DNA of 64,000 bases from Frigoriflavimonas asaccharolytica (GTDB lineage: Bacteria; Bacteroidota; Bacteroidia; Flavobacteriales; Weeksellaceae): the NCBI RefSeq assembly GCF_013294015.1, contig NZ_JABSNO010000003.1:78746-142745 (forward strand). Reading direction: 5' to 3'. Shown piece after piece: positions 18,647-42,450 of the stretch. Under the pieces are notes generated by a model, which worked only from the letters and a program-made list of their open reading frames with translations, ran no database searches and had not been told where the DNA came from. The first letter of the stretch is position 1. The number at the start of each line of letters is the position of its first letter. The position numbers and the translations under genes are program-made.

Positions 18647-18655
18647 AGAAGATAA

Positions 18656-18700
18656 AAGAAAGACCATTTCATACAATTGAAATGGTCTTTCTTTTATCTG
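18656..18700 (+). terminator. rho-independent terminator after efflux operon
   Basis: aagaaagaccatttc/gaaatggtctttctt hairpin plus T-rich tail. Confidence 0.6.
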
Positions 18701-18842
18701 ATTTTTCATTGAAATAAATGATTGTAGAGAATTCCTAACTTCAAATGAGAATTATTTTCATCTGTATATAATTTTTTTTAAAAAATGAATTTGAGAAAAA
18801 ATATTTTCTTTACGAATATTTAGGATTTGCAACTGAAGTTAG

Positions 18843-18875
18843 CACAAAAAACCTTGCTTTTGAGGGCAAGGTTTT
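18843..18875 (-). terminator. terminator for minus-strand gene 18891..20876
   Basis: aaccttgc/gcaaggtt hairpin; on the minus strand it is followed by a T-run. Confidence 0.5.
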
Positions 18876-18890
18876 ATTGTAAAAAATTAA

Positions 18891-20876
18891 TTATTTTAAT
18901 AAAGTTACATGACCAACATAATTATGTTTTTTACGTTGAATAAATTCAATTGGTTTTGTAATTCCATTTAAAGTAGAAGAAGCGGATTCTATTTTTATTA
19001 GATTCATATCACCATTTTCTAAAATTTCTACTATCGATTTTACACTCACTATTTCTTTGGTTTTAGGGTTTGTAAAAGTTGAATTTAATCGATGACCATC
19101 TTCTGGATCTTCAACCATTAATTCGGATAAATCAATAGTACTTGCAGTTGCCCAACCTTCAGTTAATTTTGGATTATGAGGTAAAAATGCTTCTATTTTA
19201 TCAACTTTAATAGCAATACTTGATATTTTCATACAACTAAAATCAAACCTTCTATTGTAAGAGATAGTATTGATTGGCGCACCATTTATTGTTGTGCTTG
19301 CAAATGGTAAATGACTTGCATCTAATAATTTTATAGAGTAAGGTGGAGAATAACAAGCAGTGGTATTTCCTGGCACAAATGGTTCATATACAATTCCGCT
19401 CGGCGAAGTAATTTCTAAAACTGCACCTACAGAAGTTGTGCCTCCCATTGCAAAACTTACTTGTCCTGTAAAATCACCTGCATGTAATCCATGTACAATT
19501 GTACAACATTTTTTTAATAAAGTAACATTTGCAGAAGTGGGTGTTGGTGGTGATGCAACATTCACGGTAACACATCCTAAAGTAGTTGTACAACCTGAAG
19601 AAGTGCAAGTTGCAATGATACAAATTGTATTAGTTCCTTCATTCAAATCATTGAATGAAACTGTCATGCTTCCATTATTAGAAGTAAGTAGATAGTTATT
19701 TGTTGTTCCTAAAGGAGAAGTTCTATTTAAAGCGAAAGAATCAACACCATTTATTAAAACTTTAATTTTTGTAGCCCAAACACCACTTGACAAACTATTT
19801 GAATGAGGTCGATAATTAATTGTTAAGGTTTTTGTATTGTTGCTTGCATTATAAGGTATATTTAATACCGACCCAATATTTGCACTTGTACCTGAACCAC
19901 TTGGAAACTGAACAGAAGCTGTCGGATCTGGTGTACATCCACAAGTAGTAGTTGTTTTATTAGAATTAGAATTTTCTGTAACTCCATCCCAACCTTTGTA
20001 TTCACTTTCAGCAAGTCCATCCCAACCTTTTCTTGGTTTGCCAAAGGCAATACTCAATCCTACATTTACGCCAAGTGCAGAATAACTGGTGCTTTTGGTT
20101 TCTCCTTTTACATACGTTCCGTTGTTCACAAAATTTGCTTCGTAAAATCCGGCCTGGTTTGGTGGTCCAGTTGGTACCAAAGTACTTATTTGTGTTTCCA
20201 CTTTCGGACCTAAAATATAACTGGCATCTGCAAATAATCCCAAATTTTGAGTAATCCAATATTGCATTCTTACTTTTGGGGTAATTGCTAAACCACTTGT
20301 TTTGGTTTCTGGCAAAGTCCACAAAGCTTTTTCGTAGGTTTGTCCGTTGTATTGTGTGGTTTGCACGGCACTCAATTCTTTTTGTGTCATAGAGAAATAT
20401 TCTGCCAAAACCATTGGAGAAATGGTAAATTTTTCTCCCAAATTAAAATTTACTTGTGGTCCAATTCCTATTCTAAATCCTGGGTTTCTTGGATCAACTC
20501 CTTTATAAGCTACAGAAATTGAAGTGCTACCAAAAATTGGAAAAGTATTTGGTAATGCAGCACTTGGGTTTCCGCTGCCACCAAAGTTGTATTGTCCGCC
20601 AATGTTTATACCTAGTGTTGTTTTTGGCCAACCGTCCCAACCTTTGCGAAAAGCTATAAGTGGTTGGTAATAATCTAAACTTACTCCAGATGAATTGGTT
20701 ATATAAGCATTTTTTGTGGTGCTACTTGGCATTGTGCTTCCGTAACCAACAGATATTGCGGATTTTGTAATACCGTTCCATCCTTTTACGATGTCATCTT
20801 TCTTTGAACTTTCTTGCGCATTTGCGAACAGTATTGTTCCTAAAAGAAAAGCTGTTAAAATTGTTTTTGTTTTCAT
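18891..20876 (-). CDS. secreted outer-membrane-like protein with repeated KGWDG motifs and Cys-rich C-terminal region
   Basis: Signal peptide (LFANAQ). Four (K/R)GW(D/N)G motifs bracket a porin-like N-terminal ~300 aa. A Cys-rich segment follows (TTTCGCTPD, ICIIATCTSSGCTTTLGCV). Confidence 0.5.
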   Translation of the reverse strand: MKTKTILTAFLLGTILFANAQESSKKDDIVKGWNGITKSAISVGYGSTMPSSTTKNAYITNSSGVSLDYYQPLIAFRKGWDGWPKTTLGINIGGQYNFGGSGNPSAALPNTFPIFGSTSISVAYKGVDPRNPGFRIGIGPQVNFNLGEKFTISPMVLAEYFSMTQKELSAVQTTQYNGQTYEKALWTLPETKTSGLAITPKVRMQYWITQNLGLFADASYILGPKVETQISTLVPTGPPNQAGFYEANFVNNGTYVKGETKSTSYSALGVNVGLSIAFGKPRKGWDGLAESEYKGWDGVTENSNSNKTTTTCGCTPDPTASVQFPSGSGTSANIGSVLNIPYNASNNTKTLTINYRPHSNSLSSGVWATKIKVLINGVDSFALNRTSPLGTTNNYLLTSNNGSMTVSFNDLNEGTNTICIIATCTSSGCTTTLGCVTVNVASPPTPTSANVTLLKKCCTIVHGLHAGDFTGQVSFAMGGTTSVGAVLEITSPSGIVYEPFVPGNTTACYSPPYSIKLLDASHLPFASTTINGAPINTISYNRRFDFSCMKISSIAIKVDKIEAFLPHNPKLTEGWATASTIDLSELMVEDPEDGHRLNSTFTNPKTKEIVSVKSIVEILENGDMNLIKIESASSTLNGITKPIEFIQRKKHNYVGHVTLLK

Positions 20877-20967
20877 AATTTTTATTTTAAATTTTTTCTT
20901 TTTTAATGAATTTAATTTTTAGTGGAAAATTTTAAGATTATTATTCCACAAATGTGAAAAGAATTTG

Positions 20968-26189: not shown

Positions 26190-28979
26190 TCAAATTAACT
26201 TCTCCGCAATATACTTCGCTGTTTTAGATATTTTATTTTTTGCTAAATTTTCTGGCGTACCTTCAAATACGATTACGCCACCATGTTTACCGGCTTCTGG
26301 ACCGAGATCTATCACCCAATCTGCAGATTTTATAATGTCTGGTTGATGCTCAATTACGATTACAGAATGTCCTAATTCTATTAAAGCATTGAAGGAAATT
26401 AGCAACTTTTTGATATCATGAAAATGCAAACCAGTGGAAGGTTCGTCGAAAATAAATAAGACTTTTTCTGCCGTTTTTCCTTTCACCAAAAATGAGGCAA
26501 GTTTCACACGTTGCGCTTCTCCACCAGAAAGTGTGGAAGAACTTTGTCCTAGTTGCAGATAGCCCAAACCAACATCTTGCAAAGGTTGCAATTTCGTGGC
26601 TATTTTATTTTGTTTATTATCATTAAAAAACTCGATAGATTCGTCTACCGTCATGTGCAAAATATCCGAAATATTCTTTTCGTCATATTTAACTTCTAAA
26701 ATTTCTTTTTTGAAACGCGCACCTTTGCAAACTTCGCATTCCAATTCTATATCTGCCATAAATTGCATTGCAACCGTGATAACGCCTTCTCCTTTGCACT
26801 CATCACATCTTCCACCATCTACATTGAAGGAGAAATGTTTGGTTTTGTAGCCCATCATCACAGATAATTTTTGCTTGGCATACAATTCTCGAATATCGTC
26901 GTAGGCTTTCAAATAGGTAACAGGATTGGATCTGGAAGATTTCCCAATAGGATTTTGATCTATTAATTCTATATTTCTCACCAAATTTAATGGAAATTCT
27001 ACAGAATCATAATCCATTTTTTTGCCACCCATTCCCAATTGAATTTGCACTTCTCGGGTCAGAACTTCTTTCATTAAGGTAGATTTTCCACTACCAGAAA
27101 CGCCCGAAATTACAACCAAACATTCCAAAGGAATATTTACATCTACATTTTTAAGATTATTTTCTCTCGCACCTTTTATTTTAATAAATTCTTTGGCTTT
27201 CCTTCTCTTCGTGGGAATTTCTAATTCTAATTTTCCAGTGAGATAGTCGGAGGTTAATGTATTTGCGTTTTTCAATTCATCATAAACTCCAGCAAAAACC
27301 AATTCGCCACCTAAATATCCAGCTTCCGGACCAATATCTATAATGTAATCTGCAGCTTTCATCATATCTTCATCATGTTCTACAACGATGACGGTGTTTC
27401 CAAGATCTCGCAGATTTTTTAAAACTTGGATGAGGTTTTCTGTATCGCGAGAATGCAAACCGATGGAAGGCTCATCAAGAATATAAATACTCCCAACCAA
27501 AGAACTTCCGAGAGATGTTGCTAAATTTATCCGCTGACTTTCCCCACCAGAAAGGGTATTTGACGTTCTGTTGATGCTCAAGTATCCTAGACCAACTTTC
27601 ATCAAGAATTCTAATCTTGTGATGATTTCGTAGAGCAATCTTTTGGCAATTTCTGCATCATGATCCGTTAAATTTAAACCTTTCATCAATGGTAAAAGCT
27701 CGTCCAAAGGCAATTCTACGGTAGATTGTATGTTGTGGCCATCAATTTTTACCCAAGAAGATTCTTCTCGCAAACGCAAACCATCACAGCTATAGCATTT
27801 GGTTTTGCCACGAAATCTGGAAAGCATTACACGGTATTGGATTTTGTATAAATTTTCTTCTACCATTTTGAAGAAATTATCTATAGAAGGAAAATCTTTC
27901 TTGCCATCTCCTTTCCACAAATAGTTTTTTTGCTCTTTAGATAATTCAAAATAGGGTTTGTGTATCGGGAAATCTTTTGCAGCTTTGATGAATTTTCTTT
28001 TCCATTCACTCATAGAGTCGCCTTTCCAAGCGGTAACTGCATCTTCAAAAACGGATAGATTTTTATTTGTAATTACTAAATCTTCATCAATACCAATCAC
28101 TTTTCCGTAGCCTTCGCAAGTTGGGCAAGCTCCTAAAGGATTATTAAAACTGAATAAATGTACGGTTGGTTCTAAAAATTCTTTGCCGTCTAATTCAAAT
28201 TTGTTAGAAAATTCTCGTATTTCATTAGTCTCCATGTTTTTTAGAGAGCAATATCCATGACCTTCGTAGAATGCCATTTGTATAGAATCTGCTAATCTTT
28301 GCTGAAAACTTTCATCTTCTTCATAGTTAAATCTATCGATGACCAGATGAATTTCCATATCTTTTTCTGGCACAAATCCAAAACTTTCTAAATCTTCTAT
28401 TCCGGCTACATTTCCATTTACTTCCAATCTTGTGAAACCTAGCAATTTTAAAGATTTTAAACTTTCTTCAAATTTTTCTGTTTCAAAGACTAAAGGCGTT
28501 CTTAATAAAAAAGAAACATCTTTTCCTGCTTTTTTGATGAAATCCATTACATCAGAAACGGAATCTTTCTTCACTTCCTCGCCAGAAATTGGGGAAAATG
28601 TGTGGCCGATTCTCGCAAAGAGTAACTTCATATAATCGTAGATTTCTGTAGAAGTTCCTACGGTAGAGCGAGGGTTGCTAGAAATAACCTTTTGCTGAAT
28701 AGCGATAGATGGAGCCAAACCCTTGATATCGTCGATTTTCGGTTTTTCTAATTTTCCAAGAAATTGGCGTGCATAAGAACTCAAACTTTCTACGTATCTG
28801 CGTTGTCCTTCTGCATAAATAGTATCAAAAGCGAGGGAAGATTTTCCGCTGCCAGAAACACCTGTGATCACGATTAATTTATTTTTCGGAATAAGTACAT
28901 CTATATTTTTTAAATTATTTAGATGCGCATTTTTTACGAAAAGTTGAGTTTTTATATTGATATTTTCTAGTGTAACCAT
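26190..28979 (-). CDS. uvrA: excinuclease ABC subunit A
   Basis: 929 aa with two ABC ATPase modules (GVSGSGKSSLAFDTIYAEGQRRYVESLS...; second GVSGSGKSTL) and zinc-finger Cys clusters. Confidence 0.9.
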   Translation of the reverse strand: MVTLENINIKTQLFVKNAHLNNLKNIDVLIPKNKLIVITGVSGSGKSSLAFDTIYAEGQRRYVESLSSYARQFLGKLEKPKIDDIKGLAPSIAIQQKVISSNPRSTVGTSTEIYDYMKLLFARIGHTFSPISGEEVKKDSVSDVMDFIKKAGKDVSFLLRTPLVFETEKFEESLKSLKLLGFTRLEVNGNVAGIEDLESFGFVPEKDMEIHLVIDRFNYEEDESFQQRLADSIQMAFYEGHGYCSLKNMETNEIREFSNKFELDGKEFLEPTVHLFSFNNPLGACPTCEGYGKVIGIDEDLVITNKNLSVFEDAVTAWKGDSMSEWKRKFIKAAKDFPIHKPYFELSKEQKNYLWKGDGKKDFPSIDNFFKMVEENLYKIQYRVMLSRFRGKTKCYSCDGLRLREESSWVKIDGHNIQSTVELPLDELLPLMKGLNLTDHDAEIAKRLLYEIITRLEFLMKVGLGYLSINRTSNTLSGGESQRINLATSLGSSLVGSIYILDEPSIGLHSRDTENLIQVLKNLRDLGNTVIVVEHDEDMMKAADYIIDIGPEAGYLGGELVFAGVYDELKNANTLTSDYLTGKLELEIPTKRRKAKEFIKIKGARENNLKNVDVNIPLECLVVISGVSGSGKSTLMKEVLTREVQIQLGMGGKKMDYDSVEFPLNLVRNIELIDQNPIGKSSRSNPVTYLKAYDDIRELYAKQKLSVMMGYKTKHFSFNVDGGRCDECKGEGVITVAMQFMADIELECEVCKGARFKKEILEVKYDEKNISDILHMTVDESIEFFNDNKQNKIATKLQPLQDVGLGYLQLGQSSSTLSGGEAQRVKLASFLVKGKTAEKVLFIFDEPSTGLHFHDIKKLLISFNALIELGHSVIVIEHQPDIIKSADWVIDLGPEAGKHGGVIVFEGTPENLAKNKISKTAKYIAEKLI

Positions 28980-29338
28980 GGTAAAATTAAGACTAACAAA
29001 ATTACGGAAAATATGTGGATTTAATTTGTTGCATTTGGATGAAATCTTTCTTAATAAATGATTTTTCTTATAAAAAATGATGATCGATAACTCTTATTTT
29101 AACTTCTTGTTTTTTATATTTGCGCAAAATTCATTTAAATTTATCTTTTATAATTATCAATAACGGATTTTTTGGCTTGCTATATTTTGAATTCCGACAT
29201 GAGCGAAAGTCTTTTTTTGACCAAATAAAATTGTAAGCAGAAGGCATAAGCAAAATTATAGCGAAGGCATTATTCGAAGGATACAAAACGAAATTCAAGC
29301 TAACCAAAAAATCATATTAGAAATCCTAACTAAAATTT

Positions 29339-31150
29339 ATGCTAAAAAAAATAATTCCAATTTCAGTATTATTATTCTCTTTAAATGCTTATTCTCAAGA
29401 AAAAGAGGTAGCAATTGAGGAAGTACTATTGCATGATAAATTTCTGAACTTGAAATATGAGAATGCCAATGAAAATGTAGTGGTAATAACTAAAAAAGAT
29501 ATAGAAAATTCTCCTGCGCAAAGTATAGACGATCTTTTGCAACAATACGTTGGAATGGATGTAAAAAGACGAGGAGCCAATGGCGTACAAAGTGATATTT
29601 CCATAAGAGGTGGCAGTTTTGAGCAGGTTTTGATCCTATTAAATGGCATCCGAATGAATGATTCTCAAACTGGCCACAATTCATTCAATATTCCTGTAGA
29701 TGTGAGCAATGTAGAACGTATAGAAATTATAAAAGGTCCTGCTGCAAGACGTTTCGGACAGAATGCTTATGCGGGAGTTATCAATATCGTAACGAAAACA
29801 TCTTCTGAAGAAACGATAAAAAGCTCCATAGAAGTTGGTGATTTTAATACTAGAAATTTAACGGCAAGTGGAACTTTTGGTACGGAAAAATTTACAAATT
29901 TAATCCAAGTTAGTTCTGCAAAATCCGATGGCTATAGATATAATACAGATTATGATATTGCGAATTTTTATTATCAAAACCAATATAAACTGAAAAACGG
30001 TAAAATCCTTTTTCAAGGAGGATATTCTGAAAAGAAATTTGGAGCAAATGGATTTTATGCATCACCAAAAGCGACGGAACAATATGAAGAAGTGCAAGCA
30101 TCTGTAGTAAGTTTGGGTTTGGAACAAAAATTTGAAAAATTTAATTTTAATACCAGTATTTCCTGGAGAAGAGGGCAGGATATGTATCTTTTCAATCGAG
30201 AAAAACCGGAAATTTATAGAAATATACACATCGGCAATAATCTGCAGGCAGAGGCAAATGGAAGTTATCAATCTAAATTGGGTACTACAGGATTGGGCGT
30301 AGAATATAGAAAAGAGTTTTTGGTAAGCAATAATCTTGGGGAAAGAGAAAGAGATGTGACGCAACTTTTTTTTGAACATCATTTTTCCCTTTTAAATAAT
30401 AAATTAACGATTTCGCCTGGAATTTCTTGGGCTAATTTTTCTGGAAAAGACAACTTTTTTTATCCAGGTTTAGATGTTGGATATGCTATAAATGATCAAA
30501 ATAAAATTTATGGTAACGTAGCGAAAGTACATAGAATTCCTACGTTTACAGATTTGTATTATGTAAGTGGAACGGAACAAGGAAATCCGGAATTGAACCC
30601 AGAAAGCGCAATTTCTTACGAATTTGGTTACCGCTTTGAAAAAAATAATTGGTTGGCAAAAGCGAGTGTATTTGGAAGAAATTCTGAAGATGCAATAGAT
30701 TTTGTGAAACAAACGCTTGCTGATAAATGGATGGCGGAAAATATTGGAAATATAGACACCAAAGGTTTGGAGGTTGAACTGAAAAAAACGGCAAACAATT
30801 TTATAAAATCATATTCCCTCGGTTACGTATTTCTGGAAAATAGATTGAGTCAAAGTCAACCTTTTTCTAGATATGTTTTAGATAATTTCAAGCATCAGCT
30901 TATTGGTAAATTAGAGAATAAATTTGGTAAATATGTTTCTACTCAATTGATTTATAGATACCAAGAAAGGATGAATAAAGACAGTTATCATCTTCTAGAT
31001 GCAAGAGTAAACCTGGATTATAAAGATGTAACGCTATTTGTATTGGTAAATAATGTAACCAACACCAAATATACAGAAGCTTTTGGAGTTCCGATGCCAA
31101 ATAGATGGTTTCATGTTGGGGTTTCTTATGAAATTCAATTTAAAAAATAA
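29339..31150 (+). CDS. TonB-dependent receptor (small, ~600 aa)
   Basis: Signal peptide, plug-domain motif (DISIRGGSFEQVLILLNGIRMND) and a C-terminal barrel ending in aromatic residue F. Confidence 0.8.
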   Translation: MLKKIIPISVLLFSLNAYSQEKEVAIEEVLLHDKFLNLKYENANENVVVITKKDIENSPAQSIDDLLQQYVGMDVKRRGANGVQSDISIRGGSFEQVLILLNGIRMNDSQTGHNSFNIPVDVSNVERIEIIKGPAARRFGQNAYAGVINIVTKTSSEETIKSSIEVGDFNTRNLTASGTFGTEKFTNLIQVSSAKSDGYRYNTDYDIANFYYQNQYKLKNGKILFQGGYSEKKFGANGFYASPKATEQYEEVQASVVSLGLEQKFEKFNFNTSISWRRGQDMYLFNREKPEIYRNIHIGNNLQAEANGSYQSKLGTTGLGVEYRKEFLVSNNLGERERDVTQLFFEHHFSLLNNKLTISPGISWANFSGKDNFFYPGLDVGYAINDQNKIYGNVAKVHRIPTFTDLYYVSGTEQGNPELNPESAISYEFGYRFEKNNWLAKASVFGRNSEDAIDFVKQTLADKWMAENIGNIDTKGLEVELKKTANNFIKSYSLGYVFLENRLSQSQPFSRYVLDNFKHQLIGKLENKFGKYVSTQLIYRYQERMNKDSYHLLDARVNLDYKDVTLFVLVNNVTNTKYTEAFGVPMPNRWFHVGVSYEIQFKK

Positions 31151-31164
31151 AATTCAATTTTTCA

Positions 31165-31202
31165 TAAAAAAAAGAGCAATAATTAATTTGCTCTTTTTTT
31201 AT
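31165..31202. terminator. bidirectional terminator between convergent genes
   Basis: aaagagcaa...ttgctcttt hairpin flanked by A-run and T-run. Confidence 0.55.
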
Positions 31203-35496: not shown

Positions 35497-35660
35497 ATAA
35501 TTTACTGTTTAATATCCTTTACAACAGTTCGTATTGCAATTTTACTTTTTTAGAAATACGGTGTTTTTTATTGCCTCGTTCTTCTCAAGATTTGCAAATT
35601 GACCAGTGAAATTCTTATGGAATTGTTTAATTTTTGATTTTGCAAAATTAAAATTAGCAG

Positions 35661-37136
35661 TTAAAGTCCATTCAAAAACTCTTCCGCATTTTTATAATGT
35701 GCACTACGTTTCTCCTCATCCATTTTAGTAAAAGTATGGTACATCATACCAACTCTCGGATTTCCTTTGAAAAAATCTTGATTTTCACCAACAAACCTCC
35801 AAAATAATCCGTCCCAAATTTTGTCCCAATCTCCAGAAGGGTAGTTGCTCATTTTTTTGATGTAATTAGAACCGCTTAAATACGGTTTGGTAGCGAAAGT
35901 TCCACCATCTGCAAATTGGCTCATTCCGTAGATATTGGGAACCATCACCCAATCATAAGCATCAATAAATAATTCCATAAACCACTGGTACACTTCATCT
36001 GGATCTATTTCGCAAAGCAACATGAAATTTCCCAAAACCATTAATCTTTCGATATGATGACAATATCCGGTTTTCAAAACTTTTTTTATCGTCTCATCAA
36101 TTGCTGGAATTCCCGTAGTTCCATCATAAAAACTTTTTGGCATTTTTCTCTTGAAACCAAAGAAATTTTTATTTCTAGAAAATACGCCTTTTGCCAAATA
36201 CATTCCGTGAATAAACTCGCGCCAACCTATAATTTGACGAATAAAACCTTCCAAAGAATTGAGTGGAATTTCGTTCTTCTTTGCAAAATTTAAGGTTCGT
36301 TCAACAACTTGCATTGGCGTAAGTAAACCTGCATTCATCAACGGAGAAAGCAAACTATGGTTAAGAAAATGTTCTTTTTCTACTATCGCATCTTCATAAA
36401 TACCAAAATCGTGGAAACGAAAATCTAAAAACTGCTCCAACCAATTTTCTGCTTCTTCATGTGTTGCTGGATAATATGAATTTTCTGAAATTTCGCCTAA
36501 ACTTTGAGCAAAATTATTTTGAACATAAAGTACTGCTTCCTTCCAATACGCAGATTTTTCTGGAAAATCTATGCTTGGTGGAATTTTATTTTTCGGATAT
36601 TTCTTGCGATTATCTGCATCATACGTCCATTTTCCACCTTCGGGATTTCCGTTTTCGTCAATTAATATATTTAAACGAATTCTTTCTTCTTTATAAAATG
36701 AAGTTTGGAAATAGGATTTTTTATTGGGATCAAAAAATTTTTGCAAATCTTTGAGATTATTGATGAAATAAGGAGTTTCTAAAATATTTAGTTGAATGTT
36801 TTCCGAAACTTTTGCCAATCTTTTTTCCAAATTAAAATCTGCAGGATAAAGCACATTTATTTCTGTAATATTTTTAGAATCTATTTCTTTATTAAATTTT
36901 CTAATATCAGAGCATTCAGTTTCACTTTCTATATAATGTACTTTTGCTCCTTTTTCTTCTAAATATTTTTGATAATATTTCATAGAAGCACGATGAAAAG
37001 CCAACTTTTGTTTATGAAATTTGTATTGTTGGAAAAATAAATATTCTTCTACCAAATAAAAATCGCCTTTATTTTCTAGTAAAGGATTATCTGCAATCAA
37101 CTGATGCGGAAAAACTATATTGATTATTTTAGACAT
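35661..37136 (-). CDS. cryptochrome/photolyase-family protein (COG3046-like photolyase-related protein)
   Basis: 491 aa with a GWREF motif and C-terminal aromatic-rich FAD-pocket-like segment (WDKIWDGLFWRF). Lacks the 4-Cys FeS-BCP signature. Confidence 0.55.
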   Translation of the reverse strand: MSKIINIVFPHQLIADNPLLENKGDFYLVEEYLFFQQYKFHKQKLAFHRASMKYYQKYLEEKGAKVHYIESETECSDIRKFNKEIDSKNITEINVLYPADFNLEKRLAKVSENIQLNILETPYFINNLKDLQKFFDPNKKSYFQTSFYKEERIRLNILIDENGNPEGGKWTYDADNRKKYPKNKIPPSIDFPEKSAYWKEAVLYVQNNFAQSLGEISENSYYPATHEEAENWLEQFLDFRFHDFGIYEDAIVEKEHFLNHSLLSPLMNAGLLTPMQVVERTLNFAKKNEIPLNSLEGFIRQIIGWREFIHGMYLAKGVFSRNKNFFGFKRKMPKSFYDGTTGIPAIDETIKKVLKTGYCHHIERLMVLGNFMLLCEIDPDEVYQWFMELFIDAYDWVMVPNIYGMSQFADGGTFATKPYLSGSNYIKKMSNYPSGDWDKIWDGLFWRFVGENQDFFKGNPRVGMMYHTFTKMDEEKRSAHYKNAEEFLNGL

Positions 37137-37139
37137 ATT

Positions 37140-37268
37140 TTATTTATTTCTACGGCATTTTTCACTGCAATATTTCACTTCTTCCCAATTTTTCTCCCAT
37201 TTTTTTCTCCAAGAAAAAGGAAGTTTACAGACTGGGCAAATTTTTGTGGGCAAATCAGATTTTTTCAT
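37140..37268 (-). CDS. DUF2256-like small zinc-ribbon protein (42 aa), not in ORF track
   Basis: Manual translation gives [46 protein letters not shown]...CSEKC arrangement and WRKKW motif typical of DUF2256. Its ATG overlaps the upstream gene stop as ATGA. It ends 3 bp before the next gene's start. Confidence 0.65.
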
Positions 37269-37894
37269 TCAAACTCTGGTATTTCCGACGTTCTTACGTA
37301 TGGAAAAGTGTCTAATTTGGATAAACTATAATAAGAATTTAAACCTGAAATTCCTGCAGATTTAGATTTTTGTAAATCTATTTGTCCTAAATTATTCACC
37401 AAATCATCTGCTAAAATTAATTGCTCCACATTACCAATAATAAATTTGCAATCGTTTGGTAAATCTATAATGCTAGATAATTTCATTCCAATTTTAATGG
37501 GACTTTCTTTTACAAATGGTGCGAAAAAATCTTCTACATATTCTTTTTCAATGTTCATTCTATCAAATTCAGATTCTTCCGAACCTAATTTTGCAGAAGT
37601 ATAATGCGCTTTTTTTATTAAATTTTCTGGAATGTGGTTGATGCTGTACCTTTCCGTGGATTTAATATTTTTAAAAGTATCGCTTTCTTTTTCTACTTGC
37701 GGTCTCAAAACGAACGCCAATTGTGCAGGATGAGAACCCAAATGTACAACGGAAGAAATAACGGCAACATTTTCTACACCTTCTTCAGATTTTGTTGCTA
37801 TTAAGTTGGCAGGTTTTATTCCGGTGATGGAATTGATGAGATTTAATCTGTATTTACGTTCCAGATTTTCTATTTTTGATTTTTTTAAATTCAT
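37265..37894 (-). CDS. flavin reductase-like (FMN-binding split-barrel) family protein
   Basis: 209 aa, pattern consistent with flavin reductase-like domain proteins; lies within the photolyase-related cluster. Confidence 0.55.
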
Positions 37895-37913
37895 AAATTG
37901 TAATTTTTAACAA

Positions 37914-37990
37914 CTCTCGCAGATTTTTCAAATTTTGCAGATTTTTGTATAAAAATAAATAATCTGCATCATTAGCAAAATCTGCGAGAG
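37914..37990. promoter_or_regulatory. nested inverted repeat (GCAGATTTTT units) in an intergenic spacer of the photolyase-related cluster
   Basis: Outer arms ctctcgcagatttt (37914-37927) and aaaatctgcgagag (37977-37990). Inner arms ttgcagattttt and aatctgca. Confidence 0.4.
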
Positions 37991-38000
37991 AAAGATCTTT

Positions 38001-38957
38001 TTAATTTTCAAATTCTTTTTGCAACACTTTTTTAATTTTTTTCCAGAAATTAAAAAATGAAGGAAAATCGCCGTAAATATTGGTCAATGTCTCTCTTTCT
38101 TCTTTAATTCCCAAATAATGAGCATTGGTTGGATGTTCTTTATAAATAATATTTTCTTTTGAAATAATTTTATTTAAATCAGAAAATTCACTAATAATAA
38201 TTTTTATATTAGGAATATTTTCGGATAAATTTAGAGCAAAATCTAGACATTTTTCTGATACGGGAAATTGCTTAAAATGGGAAGTTTCTAATAATAATAT
38301 TCTTTGAAAATTGTCTTCTAAATGCCAATTGAAATCTAAATTGTAGTAATTGTAAACTAGAGTTTTTTCATTATTAAGGATAGGATTTTCTATTTTTGGA
38401 AGCATTGTTTGCAAATTCAAAACCTCTACATCTTTTAAAATTTCGGGAATTTGTAAATCAGGTAATGTAGAATAATCAACATCCATGAAAGTATCTTTCT
38501 GATTACCTTCAAAATATTTATTAAAATTTTCTTGATTTGCAAAATATTTTTTGCTAGAAAAACTTCCAGCAACCCATTGCCAACTTAAATGATTGCTTGC
38601 CAAATCTCCATCTAGCAAATTATAATACAACCATTTTGCAGGATTGAACCAGTGAGAATGTGCAATATTACAAGTGATAGAAGCAATGTACATCCGCAAA
38701 TGGTTGTGAATATATCCGCTTGTATAAAGTTCAGAAATGCCTTTGTCTATAATATTTATCCCAGTATTTCCTACAAAAATTGCCTTTGGAATTTCCCAAT
38801 TTTCTACATTTTCTTGCATTTTCTTTAAATCTGAAAATATCAAATCTTGTTTTGCTTTGTAAACTTCTTGAAAAAAATCTCTCCAAGCCAATTCTTGCAC
38901 TAATCTTTCTACCTCAAACCATTGCAAATTTAAAGTTTTCAAATGCTCAAAAACCAT
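38001..38957 (-). CDS. photolyase/cryptochrome FAD-binding-domain-like protein, atypical (lacks N-terminal alpha/beta domain)
   Basis: The first ~140 aa carry WRDFF, TGINIIDKG...HNHLRMY and LLDGDLASNHLSWQWVAGS motifs. In canonical photolyases these lie in the C-terminal third. About 170 further residues follow with no clear motif. Confidence 0.6.
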   Translation of the reverse strand: MVFEHLKTLNLQWFEVERLVQELAWRDFFQEVYKAKQDLIFSDLKKMQENVENWEIPKAIFVGNTGINIIDKGISELYTSGYIHNHLRMYIASITCNIAHSHWFNPAKWLYYNLLDGDLASNHLSWQWVAGSFSSKKYFANQENFNKYFEGNQKDTFMDVDYSTLPDLQIPEILKDVEVLNLQTMLPKIENPILNNEKTLVYNYYNLDFNWHLEDNFQRILLLETSHFKQFPVSEKCLDFALNLSENIPNIKIIISEFSDLNKIISKENIIYKEHPTNAHYLGIKEERETLTNIYGDFPSFFNFWKKIKKVLQKEFEN

Positions 38958-39097
38958 TTTTGTAGATATTGCACCACGAGAAATGTACGGGCTTAAATGC
39001 GTGACAGCACCATTTCCAAAATTTCTAGTGGAAGAATATTTTACAGGATTTATCTCAGAAATCCTTGTTTTTATCGCTGATATGGAAGTTGGGAAGT

Positions 39098-39367
39098 CTA
39101 TCGCTTTGAAATTTTATTGTTGGAAATTGCATTCTGCCGAGAACATTTGAAGCGAGAAATATCATCGCTTCGTTTTTTGAGGTGTTTTTTGCTAACACCA
39201 GAATTCACTCGTTTTCGCCATAATTTGAAAGAACTTTCTTTCAATTCGGTGCGCATTAGTTGAATAACATCTGCTTCTGCAAAGCCAAATTGGAATTTTA
39301 TGGCTTCAAAAGGCGTTCTATCTTCCCATGCCATTTCTATGATTCTATCTGTTTGTCTGTCTGTCAT
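39098..39367 (-). CDS. DUF2132/TIGR03643-like small protein
   Basis: IIEMAWEDRTPFEAIKFQFG motif, which I recall as characteristic of the DUF2132 family. Basic C-terminal tail. Confidence 0.5.
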   Translation of the reverse strand: MTDRQTDRIIEMAWEDRTPFEAIKFQFGFAEADVIQLMRTELKESSFKLWRKRVNSGVSKKHLKKRSDDISRFKCSRQNAISNNKISKR

Positions 39368-39450
39368 GCTGTTAGGTTCAAAATTTAAAATTCAATGGTT
39401 TAAAGTTTTTAAGAATTAAATCTTAATCAATTATCATTTTTCATTTATAT

Positions 39451-40215
39451 TTAAAGTTTCTCTGTCAAATATTTCCAATATCTTTTTGGTACGTGTTGGT
39501 AGTGTAATTTCAAGTTTTTTCGTTCGGGTATATTTGTTTTAAAAAAGTAGCGTTGCCACAACTTTTGGTATCTTTTTTCTTCATCATGCAGCAATTCATC
39601 TATCTTTTGAAACTGATATATTTGGTCAGATTCTGGATTAAAAAATTCCATTGTTTTCAAATCGTAAAAAACGCCGTAGTGTCTTTTCAAATCGTAAATC
39701 ATCCACTTTTGGTCTTGATATCGATCTTTAAAGTGCTTCACAATTAAGGGTAAAACATTAAAATCTGGTTCAATCTTCGCAAAATAAACATCATCTTTCA
39801 ATTTTTCAAACCGTACAAAAGCGTGCATTCTGTGGATTTCTCTATTGACGGATTTATTTATTTTTGCAATTTCCAAAATTTCATCGTCGCTGTAATTTAA
39901 TAAAACATCAACAGTAGGATTTTTAATTGATTTTTTTACGGCATTTAAAACTAAAAATTCTACATCTTTTCTTTCGGATAAATATACTTTCAGCAATTTT
40001 GAAACTCCAGTTTTACCGATATTTTTTTCTAATTTTTTTAAAACTCTATCTGATTTTTCAATAGAAGTTAGCACTTCATGAAGATTTGAAAACATGTTTT
40101 CACTCAAATAATTTTCTTTAGCAATTATTTCTGCTGGCTCATATTTATATTCAAAAACCTCGAATATTGCGGTAAATAAGCCTTCAAAACTGCCATCATA
40201 GAGTAGAGTAGTCAT
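39451..40215 (-). CDS. TIGR03915/DUF4130-like probable DNA metabolism protein (partner of radical SAM TIGR03916)
   Basis: 254 aa; abuts the upstream radical-SAM gene with no gap. N-terminal MTTLLYDGSFEGLFTAIFEVFE pattern resembles this family. Confidence 0.5.
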   Translation of the reverse strand: MTTLLYDGSFEGLFTAIFEVFEYKYEPAEIIAKENYLSENMFSNLHEVLTSIEKSDRVLKKLEKNIGKTGVSKLLKVYLSERKDVEFLVLNAVKKSIKNPTVDVLLNYSDDEILEIAKINKSVNREIHRMHAFVRFEKLKDDVYFAKIEPDFNVLPLIVKHFKDRYQDQKWMIYDLKRHYGVFYDLKTMEFFNPESDQIYQFQKIDELLHDEEKRYQKLWQRYFFKTNIPERKNLKLHYQHVPKRYWKYLTEKL

Positions 40216-41472
40216 TTAAAATAAACTAAGTTGCTCTGAAAAAGGGTTCTGAAATTTCGATTTCATACTATTCATTATAATTTTTTTAAAATTTTGCTCC
40301 TCAATATATTTGTTGAAAATATTTGGATTGTCAAATTCAACAAAATATTTTGCTCTATTTAAAGCAACGCCCATTTTCTTTAAATTTTCTAAAGTCAGTT
40401 TTTGAAAACGTCTTGCATTAATGATTTTATTCACCGATTTTCCGCCAATTCCTGGAATTCTCATCAGCATTCCTTTGGATGCAGTATTTACGTTGATAGG
40501 AAATTGCTCGCGATGACGCAAAGCCCAAGCCAATTTTGGATCTACTTCTAGGTCTAAAAATGGATTTTCTTTCTCCAAAATTTCATGTGCTTTAAAACCA
40601 TAAAAACGCATCAACCAATCTGCTTGGTACAATCTATTTTCTCGCAGCATTGGAACTTGAGAATCTATGGAAGGCAATCTCGCATCCGTCAACATTGGCA
40701 CGTAGCCAGAATAATAAACTCTTTTTAGATTGAAATTTTGATAAAAATGATCTGCAACTTTTATAATTTTTAAATCGGTTTCGTCTGTTGCTCCCACAAT
40801 CATTTGGGTAGATTGTCCGGCAGGTGCAAATTTTGGAACTTTTCTAAAGATTTTTTTCTCTTCTTTGTACAATGCCAATTCATTTTTTACAAAACCCATT
40901 GGTTTGATCATCTCGGAATGAGATTTTTCTGGTGCTAATAATTTTAAACCTTTTTCTGTAGGAATTTCTATATTGATAGAAAGTCTATCTGCATAAAGTC
41001 CTGCTTCTTTCATGATTTCATCACTTGCGCCAGGAATGGATTTTAAGTGAATATATCCGTTAAAATTATGCTCTAAACGTAATTTTTTTGCTACCCGAAC
41101 CAAACGTTCCATGGTGGTATCTGAATCTTTGAAGATCCCAGAACTTAAAAATAAACCTTCAATATAATTTCTACGGTAGAAATTCATCGTCAAATCTACC
41201 ACCTCTTCTACAGTGAAGGCTGCACGTTTGATATCGTTTGTTTTGCGGGAAACGCAGTAGGCACAATCATAGATGCAATGATTGGTTAAAAGAATTTTTA
41301 AAAGTGAAACGCATCGTCCATCTTCAGTGTACGAATGGCAAATACCGGAAGCATGACTGTTTCCTAAGCCGCCGTTGTTTTTACGATTTCCACCACTAGA
41401 AGAGCAAGAAACATCGTATTTTGCTGCATCTGCGAGGATTTCTAATTTTTCTTTTATGCGTTCTAAATTCAT
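40216..41472 (-). CDS. putative DNA modification/repair radical SAM protein (TIGR03916-like) with C-terminal HhH
   Basis: CIYDCAYC CxxxCxxC radical-SAM cluster motif. C-terminal helix-hairpin-helix (MLMRIPGIGGKSVNKIINAR). Confidence 0.75.
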   Translation of the reverse strand: MNLERIKEKLEILADAAKYDVSCSSSGGNRKNNGGLGNSHASGICHSYTEDGRCVSLLKILLTNHCIYDCAYCVSRKTNDIKRAAFTVEEVVDLTMNFYRRNYIEGLFLSSGIFKDSDTTMERLVRVAKKLRLEHNFNGYIHLKSIPGASDEIMKEAGLYADRLSINIEIPTEKGLKLLAPEKSHSEMIKPMGFVKNELALYKEEKKIFRKVPKFAPAGQSTQMIVGATDETDLKIIKVADHFYQNFNLKRVYYSGYVPMLTDARLPSIDSQVPMLRENRLYQADWLMRFYGFKAHEILEKENPFLDLEVDPKLAWALRHREQFPINVNTASKGMLMRIPGIGGKSVNKIINARRFQKLTLENLKKMGVALNRAKYFVEFDNPNIFNKYIEEQNFKKIIMNSMKSKFQNPFSEQLSLF

Positions 41473-41503
41473 TAATTTATTAAAATTTAATGATGTAAAA
41501 ATA

Positions 41504-41511
41504 CAAAAATA
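41504..41511 (-). promoter_or_regulatory. candidate -7 promoter element (TAnnTTTG) for the radical-SAM/photolyase-related operon
   Basis: Minus-strand tatttttg about 32 bp upstream of the ATG at 41472. Confidence 0.25.
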
Positions 41512-41586
41512 AAGTAAGAAAACATTCTAAAATTAACTTATTTGAATTTATTTATACCTTTATTGATTTAGAGCAATCGTTTATTG

Positions 41587-42450
41587 TTATTTCCTAATCC
41601 ATTTTAGAATTTCGGGAAGTATAATTTTTTCACGTTTTTCTTTACTGAAAAATCTAGGGACATGACCCGTTTTCATCATATAAATTAGTTTGTGATCTAC
41701 CTTATGTAAAAATAATACGGAATCTAAAGCAAGACCTTGTTTTCTATTTACAAGCAAATCTTGATCTCCTTGAAATAAAAGTGTTGGCACATTTGAAACT
41801 TGATAAATTGGACTTGCTATTTTAAAGCTTTCAGGAATTTTTTTTCTATTAAATTTTTCACCAACAACATCTTGAATTGTTGGCAACGCGTATCTAGAGT
41901 AGGTGGTAGCTAGAAATTGAGGTGTATAAAAATCAGTAGGTCCGCTTAGAGATATGATTTTCGAAATTAATTGGGGATTTTGATACCCATACAAAAGCGC
42001 TAAATGTGCGCCCGCACTCTCTCCTAAAATAATGAAATTGTCTTCTGGTAAAAGTGTTTTTGTAGAAAACTCGTTAAATTTTTTGATGGCAGATTCTATA
42101 TCCTCTAGTTGATCTTTGTAGGTAATTCCCTTTCTCACGAGTCTATAATTGATATTAATTGTAGGAATATTTTTGCTGTGCAAATAATTCTGAATCATAA
42201 TCATTTTTTGTTTTCTACCTCTTTTCCAAGCGCCACCATGCACAATAACGACTGCAGATCTATCTCTTTCGAAATATGCTGGTAAGAAAACATCCATATT
42301 TTGTTTTTTTTCTTCGCCGTATTTTAAATTATAAATTTTTTGCTCATTATTTTCTCCTACCCAGATTTTGTATTGAGAAGTACAAGATTGCAGTGCAAAG
42401 GATAACAAACCGAGAAACCAAAATATATAATTGAAGAATAATTTTTTCAT
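41587..42450 (-). CDS. alpha/beta hydrolase (esterase/lipase-like), secreted
   Basis: HGGAW oxyanion-hole motif and GESAGAH nucleophile elbow. Signal peptide. Confidence 0.7.
   Translation of the reverse strand: MKKLFFNYIFWFLGLLSFALQSCTSQYKIWVGENNEQKIYNLKYGEEKKQNMDVFLPAYFERDRSAVVIVHGGAWKRGRKQKMIMIQNYLHSKNIPTININYRLVRKGITYKDQLEDIESAIKKFNEFSTKTLLPEDNFIILGESAGAHLALLYGYQNPQLISKIISLSGPTDFYTPQFLATTYSRYALPTIQDVVGEKFNRKKIPESFKIASPIYQVSNVPTLLFQGDQDLLVNRKQGLALDSVLFLHKVDHKLIYMMKTGHVPRFFSKEKREKIILPEILKWIRK

Follow-up and report, generated by a model that had tools for sequence, protein, structure and literature searches.

The window analyzed here, a 64,000 nt stretch of Frigoriflavimonas asaccharolytica DNA (assembly GCF_013294015.1, contig NZ_JABSNO010000003.1, positions 78,746-142,745 of the forward strand), carries at 35661-41472 seven collinear minus-strand ORFs that fall into two modules, each conserved on its own. 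Module A consists of a TIGR03916 radical-SAM/helix-hairpin-helix (rSAM) protein and its TIGR03915/DUF4130 partner; module B comprises a DUF2805 protein, a NewPHL/SPL photolyase, a flavin-reductase-like protein, a DUF2256 protein, and a CryPro-type (6-4) photolyase homologue with a DPRP domain (Table 1). It is likely that together they make up a UV-damage repair island, with two independently conserved modules set head to tail and probably one promoter upstream of the rSAM gene. The fusion of the modules is genuine but limited to a narrow Weeksellaceae clade, and the cluster is better regarded as a useful clue than as a new pathway. An earlier sequence-only reading had described seven closely packed genes on one strand, connected with DNA photodamage; all seven were found, and the connection is supported. 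All score above the curated cut-offs of their family profiles, and the searches that reading proposed (TIGR03916, TIGR03915, TIGR03643, PF10013, FAD_binding_7, Flavin_Reduct) all gave matches. Six of its seven family labels are borne out by the profile scores, the exception being that of the small protein discussed below.

Table 1. Genes, gene junctions, and candidate control elements of the cluster (window positions).
Feature	Positions	Spacing	Strand	Basis
Degenerate remnant of operator-like palindrome, TTAGAAT-N6-TTACTTT	41511..41530		(-)	comparison with relatives
Candidate Bacteroidetes-type -7 box, TATTTTTG = TAnnTTTG	41504..41511	32 nt upstream of rSAM ATG	(-)	consensus match
Radical-SAM protein, C-terminal helix-hairpin-helix (TIGR03916), 418 aa	40216..41472		(-)	profile match
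rSAM to DUF4130		0 nt	(-)	from coordinates
TIGR03915/DUF4130 partner, 254 aa	39451..40215		(-)	profile match
DUF4130 to DUF2805 (A-B spacer, joins modules)	39368..39450	83 nt	(-)	from coordinates
DUF2805/TIGR03643 small basic protein, 89 aa	39098..39367		(-)	profile match
DUF2805 to NewPHL		4-nt overlap	(-)	from coordinates
NewPHL/SPL-class photolyase, revised 366 aa (public annotation: 318 aa from 38957)	38001..39101		(-)	profile + homologue alignment
NewPHL to flavin-reductase-like gene		106 nt	(-)	from coordinates
106-nt spacer with strong nested hairpin, arms ~37977-37990 / 37914-37927	37895..38000		(-)	RNA fold
Split-barrel flavin-reductase-like protein, 209 aa	37265..37894		(-)	profile match
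Flavin-reductase-like gene to DUF2256		4-nt overlap	(-)	from coordinates
DUF2256 four-cysteine zinc-ribbon mini-protein, 42 aa	37140..37268		(-)	profile match
DUF2256 to DPRP		3 nt	(-)	from coordinates
CryPro/FeS-BCP-family (prokaryotic 6-4 photolyase) homologue without Fe-S cysteines, 491 aa	35661..37136		(-)	profile + structure matches

The rSAM protein matches TIGR03916 at 686 bits (cut-off 343.5), and also Radical_SAM and HHH_3. Its C66-x3-C70-x2-C73 motif and cysteines C23, C45, and C54 are invariant in 82/82 homologues; no solved homologue was found, and the HhH region bears a weak resemblance to RuvA. The partner, whose start codon immediately follows the rSAM stop, scores 268 bits to TIGR03915 (cut-off 112) and 175 bits to DUF4130. 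Across 80 metagenome loci module A is an invariant pair (rSAM identity 64-91%), with the partner gene directly after rSAM in ~72 and the remainder cut by contig ends; genes for an XRE-type HTH protein and an HD hydrolase are its usual neighbours there. The pair was earlier described as an uncharacterised putative repair system, and so it still stands (bioRxiv 10.64898/2026.08.19.745780). It is damage-regulated via LexA in Verrucomicrobia (PMC4951493) and via DdaA in Moraxellaceae (PMC12392091), and the window pair would be a damage-inducible, light-independent enzyme pair for nucleic-acid repair or modification.

In its abutting genes, CxxxCxxC motif, HhH domain, and scores far over the cut-offs, the window pair resembles the TIGR03916/TIGR03915 (“rSAM_link_UDG”) system; it differs in that no uracil-DNA-glycosylase (UDG)-like domain is present in the DUF4130 partner, and in its fusion to a photolyase operon, which none of the 80 other loci examined showed. 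Spore photoproduct lyase (SplB), which also belongs to the radical-SAM enzymes and undoes a UV photoproduct in DNA independently of light, offers a functional analogy only. The Verrucomicrobia LexA study names a validated LexA target “splB” right after its account of this operon (PMC4951493), but no family-level match of the window rSAM protein to SplB was found: NCBIfam matches other than TIGR03916 are far under their cut-offs, and neither the partner protein nor the HhH domain is an SplB feature.

Module B begins with the small basic protein, which matches PF10985 (DUF2805) at 121 bits and TIGR03643 at 113 bits (cut-off 66.6). Its TIGR03643 label had been correct; DUF2132, the Pfam family first suggested, is rejected in favour of DUF2805. 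No solved homologue was found for this protein. In 38 of the 62 well-flanked module B loci its gene immediately precedes NewPHL, and in many lineages the two overlap by 4 nt, as ATGA or ATAG. In the window, the position homologous to the NewPHL start is an ATA (39099-39101), which overlaps the DUF2805 stop as ATAG. Read in the same frame, the 48 codons that precede the first ATG encode a match to the N-terminal sequence conserved among the homologues (“xDFPT...TRNF..GAVT.LSPYISRG”), and what had been taken for a 140-bp gap before the photolyase-like ORF is coding sequence. Alignment predicts that translation starts at the ATA, and that the public annotation misses 48 conserved residues; NewPHL is translationally coupled to DUF2805.

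The NewPHL protein (FAD_binding_7, 85.6 bits) had been called atypical; it belongs instead to the NewPHL/SPL class, which is biochemically characterised and repairs CPDs in single-stranded DNA (PMC7736829; PMC8476157). It shares with NewPHL (Emmerich et al. 2020, PMC7736829), alternatively named short photolyase-like, SPL, subgroup “Ba” (Xu et al. 2021, PMC8476157), a FAD/catalytic domain at the N-terminus, the lack of an N-terminal alpha/beta domain, and a ~150-aa C-terminal domain that contains a conserved Trp and an aromatic “SFF/GFF” motif; motifs bearing CPD-site residues are conserved as well. The four Fe-S cysteines are absent, as in subgroup Ba, and the gene is linked to one of the FeS-BCP family, as in Cyclobacterium marinum, where an SPL and an FeS-BCP gene in one operon had already been noted (PMC8476157). 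It differs from characterised members in its predicted ATA start and its coupling to DUF2805. The C-terminal domain, termed an “unknown fold” in 2020 (PMC7736829), is modelled here as a photolyase-like alpha/beta domain resembling the photolyase N-terminal domain.

The flavin-reductase-like protein matches PF01613 (Flavin_Reduct, 60.6 bits) and, over its full length (E = 3e-43), the structural-genomics entry PDB 3fge (“putative flavin reductase with split barrel domain”), which shares the PF01613 fold. That this gene is linked to photolyase operons was observed in the genomic comparisons of this analysis. DUF2256 (PF10013, 80.8 bits; identity 76-93% across phyla) is encoded just ahead of DPRP in most loci, the gaps being mainly -7 to +16 nt. 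It had been expected, with DUF2132, near photolyase genes: DUF2256 does travel with them, and the second protein, which does so too, is DUF2805.

The last protein of the module (DPRP, 180 bits, plus a FAD_binding_7 match) aligns over its full length with Vibrio cholerae (6-4) photolyase 7ykn, PhrB 4dja, and CryB 3zxs (E = 1e-72 to 3e-81). Its earlier label, COG3046-like and photolyase-related, holds; the COG3046 protein is a member of the prokaryotic (6-4) photolyase family. Like the FeS-BCP/CryPro proteins (A. fabrum PhrB 4dja, R. sphaeroides CryB 3zxs, V. cholerae 7ykn/8a1h, C. crescentus) it has a DPRP N-terminal and a FAD domain, and the catalytic “HHIxRLM” motif is retained. Unlike them it has none of the four [4Fe-4S] cysteine ligands: PhrB C350 is replaced by Ile and C454 by Lys, and C438 and C441 fall inside a 7-10 residue deletion around the CxxC. 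The same four are absent in 40/42 linked Bacteroidota orthologues and in 94/95 close cluster representatives with a readable region. FeS-BCPs are (6-4) photolyases (PMC3204975, PMC12082625), but the cofactor is reported to be necessary for solubility of the Fe-S-bearing orthologues (PMC12082625), so that activity of the homologue is less certain.

These proteins could conceivably form a light sensor, regulatory rather than for repair, with the photolyase-like proteins mainly cryptochrome-like and DUF2805 and DUF2256 as DNA-binding outputs. Rhodobacter CryB, which is a member of the family, is entered in the PDB under the name “cryptochrome B” (3zxs), a regulatory function of the C-terminal extensions of SPL is brought up by Xu et al. 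(PMC8476157), and both small proteins are basic, with genes coupled in translation to those of the two flavoproteins. Such a role is nevertheless very improbable, given the conservation of the CPD-binding-residue motifs and the catalytic His-His motif, the DNA repair by characterised NewPHL/SPL members and several FeS-BCPs, and, in Kaistella polysaccharea, the position of the NewPHL/DPRP pair directly after a uvrA paralogue. Module B is better read as a Bacteroidota photoreactivation operon. With reduced FAD and under blue or near-UV light, NewPHL would most likely split cyclobutane pyrimidine dimers, preferably in single-stranded DNA, and the CryPro homologue would most likely reverse (6-4) photoproducts, here without the [4Fe-4S] cluster usual in the family. 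The other three proteins would be auxiliary: DUF2805 and DUF2256, each coupled to a photolyase, probably as binding partners or DNA-binding helpers, and the split-barrel reductase probably in making flavin reduced or keeping it so.

Loci with module B are spread over Flavobacteriales, Cytophagales, Chitinophagales, and Sphingobacteriales. The 62 well-flanked loci include DUF2256 in 42, DPRP in 39, DUF2805 in 38, and the flavin-reductase-like gene in 24; rSAM or DUF4130 is in none. Module A was found within 10 kb of module B in 0/80 Bacteroidota loci, and module B genes within 8 kb of module A in 0/80 metagenome loci. The fused order was seen only in the window, Halpernia humi, H. frigidisoli, and two related metagenome contigs (DUF4130 identity 76-84%); the seven genes do co-occur elsewhere. 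Since the other four lineages have an identical gene order and known flanks unlike those of the window, the arrangement is more than chance. In K. polysaccharea the rSAM pair (2.29 Mb) and the NewPHL and DPRP genes (0.30 Mb) are 2 Mb apart on one chromosome.

This distribution bears on the sequence-only proposal of a single uncharacterised seven-gene pathway, in which the rSAM pair, reductase, and photolyase-like proteins would have the same lesions as targets, with the reductase feeding electrons to the rSAM cluster and to the flavins in combined light and dark UV repair. Radical-SAM enzymes require a low-potential electron donor, which would suit such a scheme, as would the damage-inducibility of the rSAM pair elsewhere, the tight gene spacing with a single promoter-like box, and the order kept in five lineages with differing known flanks. 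It is an improbable reading all the same: five of the genes are a widespread Bacteroidota operon, the rSAM pair has its own conserved context, and outside the clade linkage is absent from both sets of 80 loci, with the Kaistella modules far apart. The reductase also occurs with photolyases in loci lacking rSAM, as in the 24/62 above and an Opitutaceae locus (L169); it belongs to the photolyase module, not to the rSAM pair.

For the two-module island, the control region would lie upstream of rSAM. Within 35500-41700 the candidate -7 box there is the sole intergenic sense-strand TAnnTTTG that precedes a cluster gene, and the block around it (“TTTTTGTAtTTTTAC”) is common to the Halpernia loci. 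At the equivalent place, Halpernia and the two metagenome contigs (L170, L171) have TTAGTA..-N4-6-TTTACTAA, a type of palindrome found upstream of rSAM in 38/85 loci against 1/1616 background windows. The window copy is degenerate, which counts against the island reading; 10/14 half-site bases match by eye. The A-B spacer has neither a TAnnTTTG box nor a terminator-like site in sequence scans, and is unconserved in sequence and length among the fused species (83, 40, 56 nt); none of the spacers within the cluster has a terminator-like site. From the single box, the lack of terminator-like sites, and the conservation of the rSAM upstream block but not of the A-B spacer, we infer one transcription unit, with all seven genes probably read from the promoter upstream of rSAM.

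The modules might also be neighbours after a rearrangement, independently transcribed and regulated, their adjacency without functional meaning. The linkage is phylogenetically narrow, the H. humi block is flanked by a transposase and a toxin-antitoxin pair, and there is a stable hairpin within the cluster; the 83-nt and 106-nt spacers are long enough for promoters, and the former could hold one missed by a simple consensus scan, a point against the island as well. This is unlikely, though less so than the preceding alternatives, in view of an order and tight spacing that persist in five lineages with DUF4130 just 76-84% identical and known flanks different, and of an A-B spacer without a -7 box or terminator-like site. 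If the island reading is right, module A was placed directly upstream of module B in an ancestor of Frigoriflavimonas and Halpernia, which would bring dark and light UV repair under one control region. The maintenance of the fused order in five lineages with differing known flanks hints that the linkage is selected, which counts against the island reading: function may be more integrated than simple juxtaposition.

The 106-nt spacer after NewPHL folds at -33 kcal/mol (z = -5.8; equalled by 0/200 shuffles), with both hairpin arms exact and no T-run following. It could terminate or process the transcript, contrary to the island reading; candidate roles are as an attenuator, a stabiliser, or a REP-like element. 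In both Halpernia species the same spacer contains structured repeats of different sequence.

The best-supported reading of this region is a UV-repair island of two modules. Seven ORFs occupy it, all on the minus strand. Two of them, a TIGR03916-type radical-SAM/helix-hairpin-helix protein (rSAM) and its TIGR03915 partner (DUF4130), are referred to as module A. The other five, module B, encode a DUF2805 protein, an FAD protein of the NewPHL class, a flavin-reductase-like protein, a DUF2256 mini-protein, and a COG3046 protein homologous to the CryPro family of prokaryotic (6-4) photolyases (DPRP). Profile searches upheld six of the seven family labels proposed by the sequence-only reading, with scores well above curated cut-offs (FAD_binding_7, 85.6 bits for the FAD protein; Flavin_Reduct, 60.6 bits for the reductase-like protein; DUF2256, 80.8 bits for the mini-protein). 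The remaining label, DUF2132 for the small protein, was wrong, the Pfam match being DUF2805; the TIGR03643 label given to the same protein stood, at 113 bits. The reductase-like protein matched 3fge, an uncharacterised split-barrel protein, with E = 3e-43, and PDB sequence searches with the DUF2805 and DUF4130 proteins gave nothing usable. By exact protein match, the source species is Frigoriflavimonas asaccharolytica (Weeksellaceae).

Positions of cluster features in the window and of related features at compared loci (L-numbers).
Feature	Sequence	Position	Strand
Seven-gene cluster	window	35661-41472	-
CryPro homologue gene	window	35661-37136	-
Spacer after NewPHL gene, with hairpin	window	37895-38000	
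NewPHL gene, revised	window	38001-39101	-
48 codons upstream of first NewPHL ATG	window	38958-39101	-
DUF2805-NewPHL junction	window	39098-39101	-
ATA codon at homologous start position	window	39099-39101	-
Spacer between modules A and B	window	39368-39450	
-7 box upstream of rSAM gene	window	41504-41511	-
Degenerate palindrome copy	window	41511-41530	
TonB-dependent receptor and uvrA paralogue genes	window (L081)	~27,000-31,200 (17808-20957)	
uvrA paralogue, NewPHL and CryPro homologue genes, Kaistella polysaccharea	L174	4994-10601	
Flanks of Halpernia humi block (Gp49/HI1420 toxin-antitoxin pair at one end, rve transposase gene at the opposite end)	L083	6873-7462, 13634-14290	
Canonical photolyase gene with surrounding genes, Opitutaceae MAG	L169	5503-8621	
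Overlapping DUF2256 and DPRP genes, Alteromonas macleodii	L167	4476-6153	

The CryPro homologue matches PF04244 (DPRP; 180 bits) and PF03441 (37 bits), and aligns over its full length with the (6-4) photolyases of V. cholerae, A. fabrum, and R. sphaeroides (E = 1e-72 to 3e-81). It keeps the catalytic His-His motif, with CHHIERLM aligned to the AHHIQRLM of the A. fabrum enzyme PhrB (4dja) and of the V. cholerae enzyme, and (6-4) photoproducts are probably its substrate. All four ligand cysteines of the [4Fe-4S] cluster are absent: PhrB C350 is replaced by Ile and C454 by Lys, while C438 and C441 fall in a deletion of 7-10 residues at the CxxC, the region as a whole covering approximately residues 330-450. 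It is therefore a homologue of the family rather than an “FeS” BCP. The corresponding segment is also free of cysteine in 40 of 42 linked Bacteroidota orthologues, and a canonical CxxC...C pattern was found in only one of 95 readable cluster representatives (out of the best 150 at 50% identity). Judged by these alignments, there is a large putative subfamily of (6-4) photolyase homologues without the cluster. The papers searched, to which access was partial, describe neither such a cysteine-less branch nor a characterised member of it. The [4Fe-4S] cluster has been called a hallmark, its loss preventing recovery of soluble protein (2025 study, PMC12082625); cluster-less homologues could provide ready-made natural controls for its debated role.

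The FAD protein fits the NewPHL class (Emmerich et al., PMC7736829), equivalent to SPL subgroup “Ba” (Xu et al., PMC8476157). It shares the class traits of a catalytic domain placed first, a C-terminal “Z” domain of ~150 aa, an absence of Fe-S cysteines, and genetic linkage to an FeS-BCP-family gene. Its topology is inverted, with the FAD/catalytic domain leading and no N-terminal alpha/beta domain; in the AlphaFold model (pLDDT 94.4, pTM 0.92), helices extend to about residue 215 and an alpha/beta fold spans residues 247 to 365. The C-terminal domain, used as a query, is alpha/beta, so its match to photolyases is probably to their N-terminal domain. Among 43 sequences, the aromatic motif of the Z domain is conserved, with S348, F349, and F350 invariant and W353 nearly so. 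The motifs QELAWRDF, HNHLRMY, and LLDGDLASNHLSWQW align with those of 1tez and 4u63, and conservation extends to the CPD-site motifs (E. coli E274, W277, N341, M345, W384) and to most FAD ligands. Ser appears to stand in place of E. coli A377 and G381, as aligned by eye, the computed numbering being one or two positions off. Light-dependent repair of CPDs in single-stranded DNA has been reported for alphaproteobacterial and actinobacterial members of the class only (PMC7736829, PMC8476157).

The start of the NewPHL gene required revision. What the sequence-only reading took for a 140-bp gap before the FAD protein is coding sequence: the 48 codons preceding the first ATG are conserved and unbroken, lie in frame, and encode IDFPTSISAIKTRISEINPVKYSSTRNFGNGAVTHLSPYISRGAISTK. 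Most homologues have 365-374 aa and open with M[DEN]FPT...; at the homologous position in the window the codon is ATA, within cgATAGac, overlapping the TAG stop of DUF2805 by the usual four bases. The revised protein has 366 aa, and the Pfam match, at residues 20-154 of the 318-aa ORF, spans 68-202 of it. The public annotation has the 318-aa form, without the conserved N-terminal segment. In E. coli photolyase, residues that bind the FAD phosphate lie in this segment (T.LSPY..G). The same ATA/ATAG junction occurs in 12 of 80 Bacteroidota loci and in both metagenome contigs carrying the seven-gene order (L170, L171); it is found in both Halpernia species and at L003, L009, L018, L021, L025, L040, and L041, with the variant ATAA at L019, and other lineages have ATGA. 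Where the ATA-junction loci have a canonical in-frame start, the first one is 13-79 codons further downstream.

These junctions bear on how the gene might be expressed. If the 318-aa ORF were a truncated pseudogene, its upstream codons would not be expected to be intact, in frame, and conserved, nor the junction to recur across loci, and this possibility was rejected. A frameshifted DUF2805-NewPHL fusion protein was likewise rejected: the sequence shows no evident slippery site, and a DUF2805 Pfam domain or an extension that long is absent from all of the 120 homologues listed. It is simpler to assume that translation terminates and then reinitiates, and the ATA codon may be a site of such reinitiation or of AUA initiation. 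NewPHL genes that start with ATA are truncated by automated annotation.

The rSAM protein of module A matches TIGR03916 over model positions 1-415, at 686.2 bits against a cut-off of 343.5; a Radical_SAM domain was also matched, along with a C-terminal helix-hairpin-helix (HHH_3) at 27.4 bits against a cut-off of 27. Six cysteines are invariant in all 82 homologues aligned: the CxxxCxxC triad (C66-x3-C70-x2-C73) and three upstream of it (residues 23, 45, and 54), which could be ligands of a second, auxiliary Fe-S cluster. A structure search yielded no solved relative. The DUF4130 protein (254 aa, without the UDG-like extension) matches TIGR03915 at 267.7 bits (cut-off 112.25) and PF13566 at 175 bits. 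The two genes abut in the window, and among 80 metagenome loci DUF4130 follows rSAM at every one that a contig end does not cut. The papers searched contain no biochemical characterisation of the pair. A 2026 preprint predicts that the two form a complex and have a nucleic-acid role (bioRxiv 10.64898/2026.08.19.745780), and regulation by DNA damage was seen in two studies covering at least two phyla (PMC4951493, PMC12392091). Cleavage of SAM and action on DNA are putative activities of the rSAM protein.

The two modules are ordinarily found apart. Alignment of the FAD protein against one genome per species gave module B loci, of which the best 80, mainly from Flavobacteriales, Cytophagales, Chitinophagales, and Sphingobacteriales, were taken with 10 kb of flank, or less near contig ends; the seven window proteins were mapped on them by tblastn. 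At the 62 well-flanked loci, DUF2256 was present in 42, DPRP in 39, DUF2805 in 38, and the flavin-reductase-like gene in 24, and 16 had the complete five-gene order; tblastn detected rSAM and DUF4130 in none of the 62. Intergenic gaps among the flavin-reductase-like, DUF2256, and DPRP genes at these loci are mostly -7 to +16 nt. An extra photolyase-family gene (~450 aa) follows NewPHL in 21 loci, and DUF2452 and SDR genes are occasional additions. The converse scan, of the rSAM protein against metagenome contigs, gave 80 loci at 64-91% identity, none with a module B gene within 8 kb. Upstream of module A at these loci, XRE-type HTH and HD-hydrolase genes are the usual neighbours; downstream, by eye from the sequences, are histidine-kinase, PhoU-like, and phosphate-transporter-like genes.

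Module A directly upstream of module B was seen in the window, in Halpernia humi (L083) and H. frigidisoli (L164, L165), and on the two metagenome contigs, with DUF4130 proteins 76-84% identical to that of the window. The sequence-only reading would have been refuted had the genes never occurred together elsewhere; they do, but in one narrow clade only. The known flanks of these loci are all unlike those of the window; L164 and L170 have in common an upstream Exo_endo_phos gene and a downstream gene for an HI0933-like oxidoreductase, and L170 and L171 have an SDR gene added after DPRP. The flanks of the H. humi block (see table) are consistent with the seven genes moving as a unit. In the closest relatives beyond this group the fusion is absent: Kaistella jeonii, K. 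chaponensis, and Chryseobacterium sp. MP_3.2 have NewPHL and DPRP only. K. polysaccharea, whose chromosome is complete, has the rSAM pair at 2.29 Mb, between rpoBC and the rplL operon, and NewPHL and DPRP at 0.30 Mb, immediately downstream of a gene for a uvrA paralogue (927 aa), itself preceded by a divergently oriented gene for a TonB-dependent receptor. The same receptor-uvrA pair lies in the window, ~6.7 kb beyond the cluster, which suggests an ancestral position beside uvrA.

Same strand, short gaps, and a single -7 box make the cluster a putative single operon, but a stable hairpin lies in one spacer. The box, of the Bacteroidetes type (TAnnTTTG), lies 32 nt before the rSAM start codon; no other intergenic copy precedes a cluster gene on the sense strand. 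The Halpernia loci conserve the block surrounding it but not the spacer between the modules (83, 40, and 56 nt). Downstream of NewPHL, the 106-nt spacer folds to a nested hairpin (-33 kcal/mol, z = -5.8) with no T-run after it; in both Halpernia species this spacer holds structured repeats of other sequence. No terminator-like site was found in the cluster spacers, and co-transcription from a predicted rSAM promoter is the most economical reading. A sigma-70 promoter scan was set aside, having given 35 matches against 30.1 ± 5.5 in shuffled sequence.

An operator-like palindrome ([AT]CTAA-N3-8-TTAG[TC], or TTAGTA..TTTACTAA) is found 20-70 nt upstream of rSAM (compared loci L084-L163, L083, L164, L170, L171), in 38 of 85 loci against one of 1616 background windows, frequently adjoining the -7 box as TAnnTTTGTTAGTAA (43 of 85). 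It is retained at the Halpernia loci, L170, and L171, and is degenerate in the window. An upstream XRE-type HTH gene is frequent. No motif common to the rSAM upstream region and the module B upstream regions of other genomes was found; the sequences preceding DUF2805 vary, and a palindrome scan with relaxed criteria was swamped by noise, the DNA being AT-rich.

Taken as a two-module UV-repair island, the cluster might work as follows. NewPHL would handle CPDs in single-stranded DNA and the cluster-less CryPro enzyme probably (6-4) photoproducts, each with translationally coupled accessory partners and with the flavin reductase alongside. Module A would be a damage-inducible radical-SAM repair pair, set directly upstream of module B by one ancestral rearrangement. 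The sequence-only reading had proposed one light- or flavin-dependent pathway for all seven genes. Their linkage is a legitimate but weak clue, by guilt by association, that UV lesions are the target of the rSAM pair, and it falls short of establishing an integrated pathway. It seems rather improbable that, in the Frigoriflavimonas/Halpernia clade, rSAM and DUF4130 were recruited for dark radical repair of UV photoproducts, whether photolyase lesions or ones photolyases cannot reach, with the reductase feeding electrons to both the radical-SAM cluster and the photolyase flavins. In that case, the class of substrates would become known for a pair found in about a fifth of bacterial genomes. The fusion with two photolyases narrows the first substrates to try with the rSAM pair to UV photoproducts, especially in single-stranded DNA, and the fused clade identifies culturable organisms for such tests. 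No paper matched every term of a literature search for flavobacterial light-induced photolyase/radical-SAM clusters. The arrangement is less novel than the sequence-only reading had it, since two of its enzymes are of characterised classes, their linkage (SPL with FeS-BCP) is already published (PMC8476157), and the fusion is limited to one clade.

The four cysteines of the DUF2256 protein raised the possibility that it stands in for the Fe-S subdomain that the CryPro homologue lacks. Two observations led to the rejection of this idea: in Alteromonas macleodii, DPRP keeps its four cysteines, yet the DUF2256 gene overlaps its 3' end, and on an Opitutaceae contig DUF2256 adjoins a canonical photolyase. 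DUF2256 and DUF2805 thus appear to be general photolyase companions rather than substitutes for a lost cluster. The proximity of DUF2256 to photolyase genes, as originally claimed, is seen across phyla, and DUF2805, DUF2256, and the split-barrel reductase, found with photolyases in several phyla, are candidate accessory factors of photoreactivation. The Opitutaceae photolyase sits amid DUF2256, DUF2805, SDR, and split-barrel flavin reductase genes, and the A. macleodii overlap is part of a four-photolyase island.
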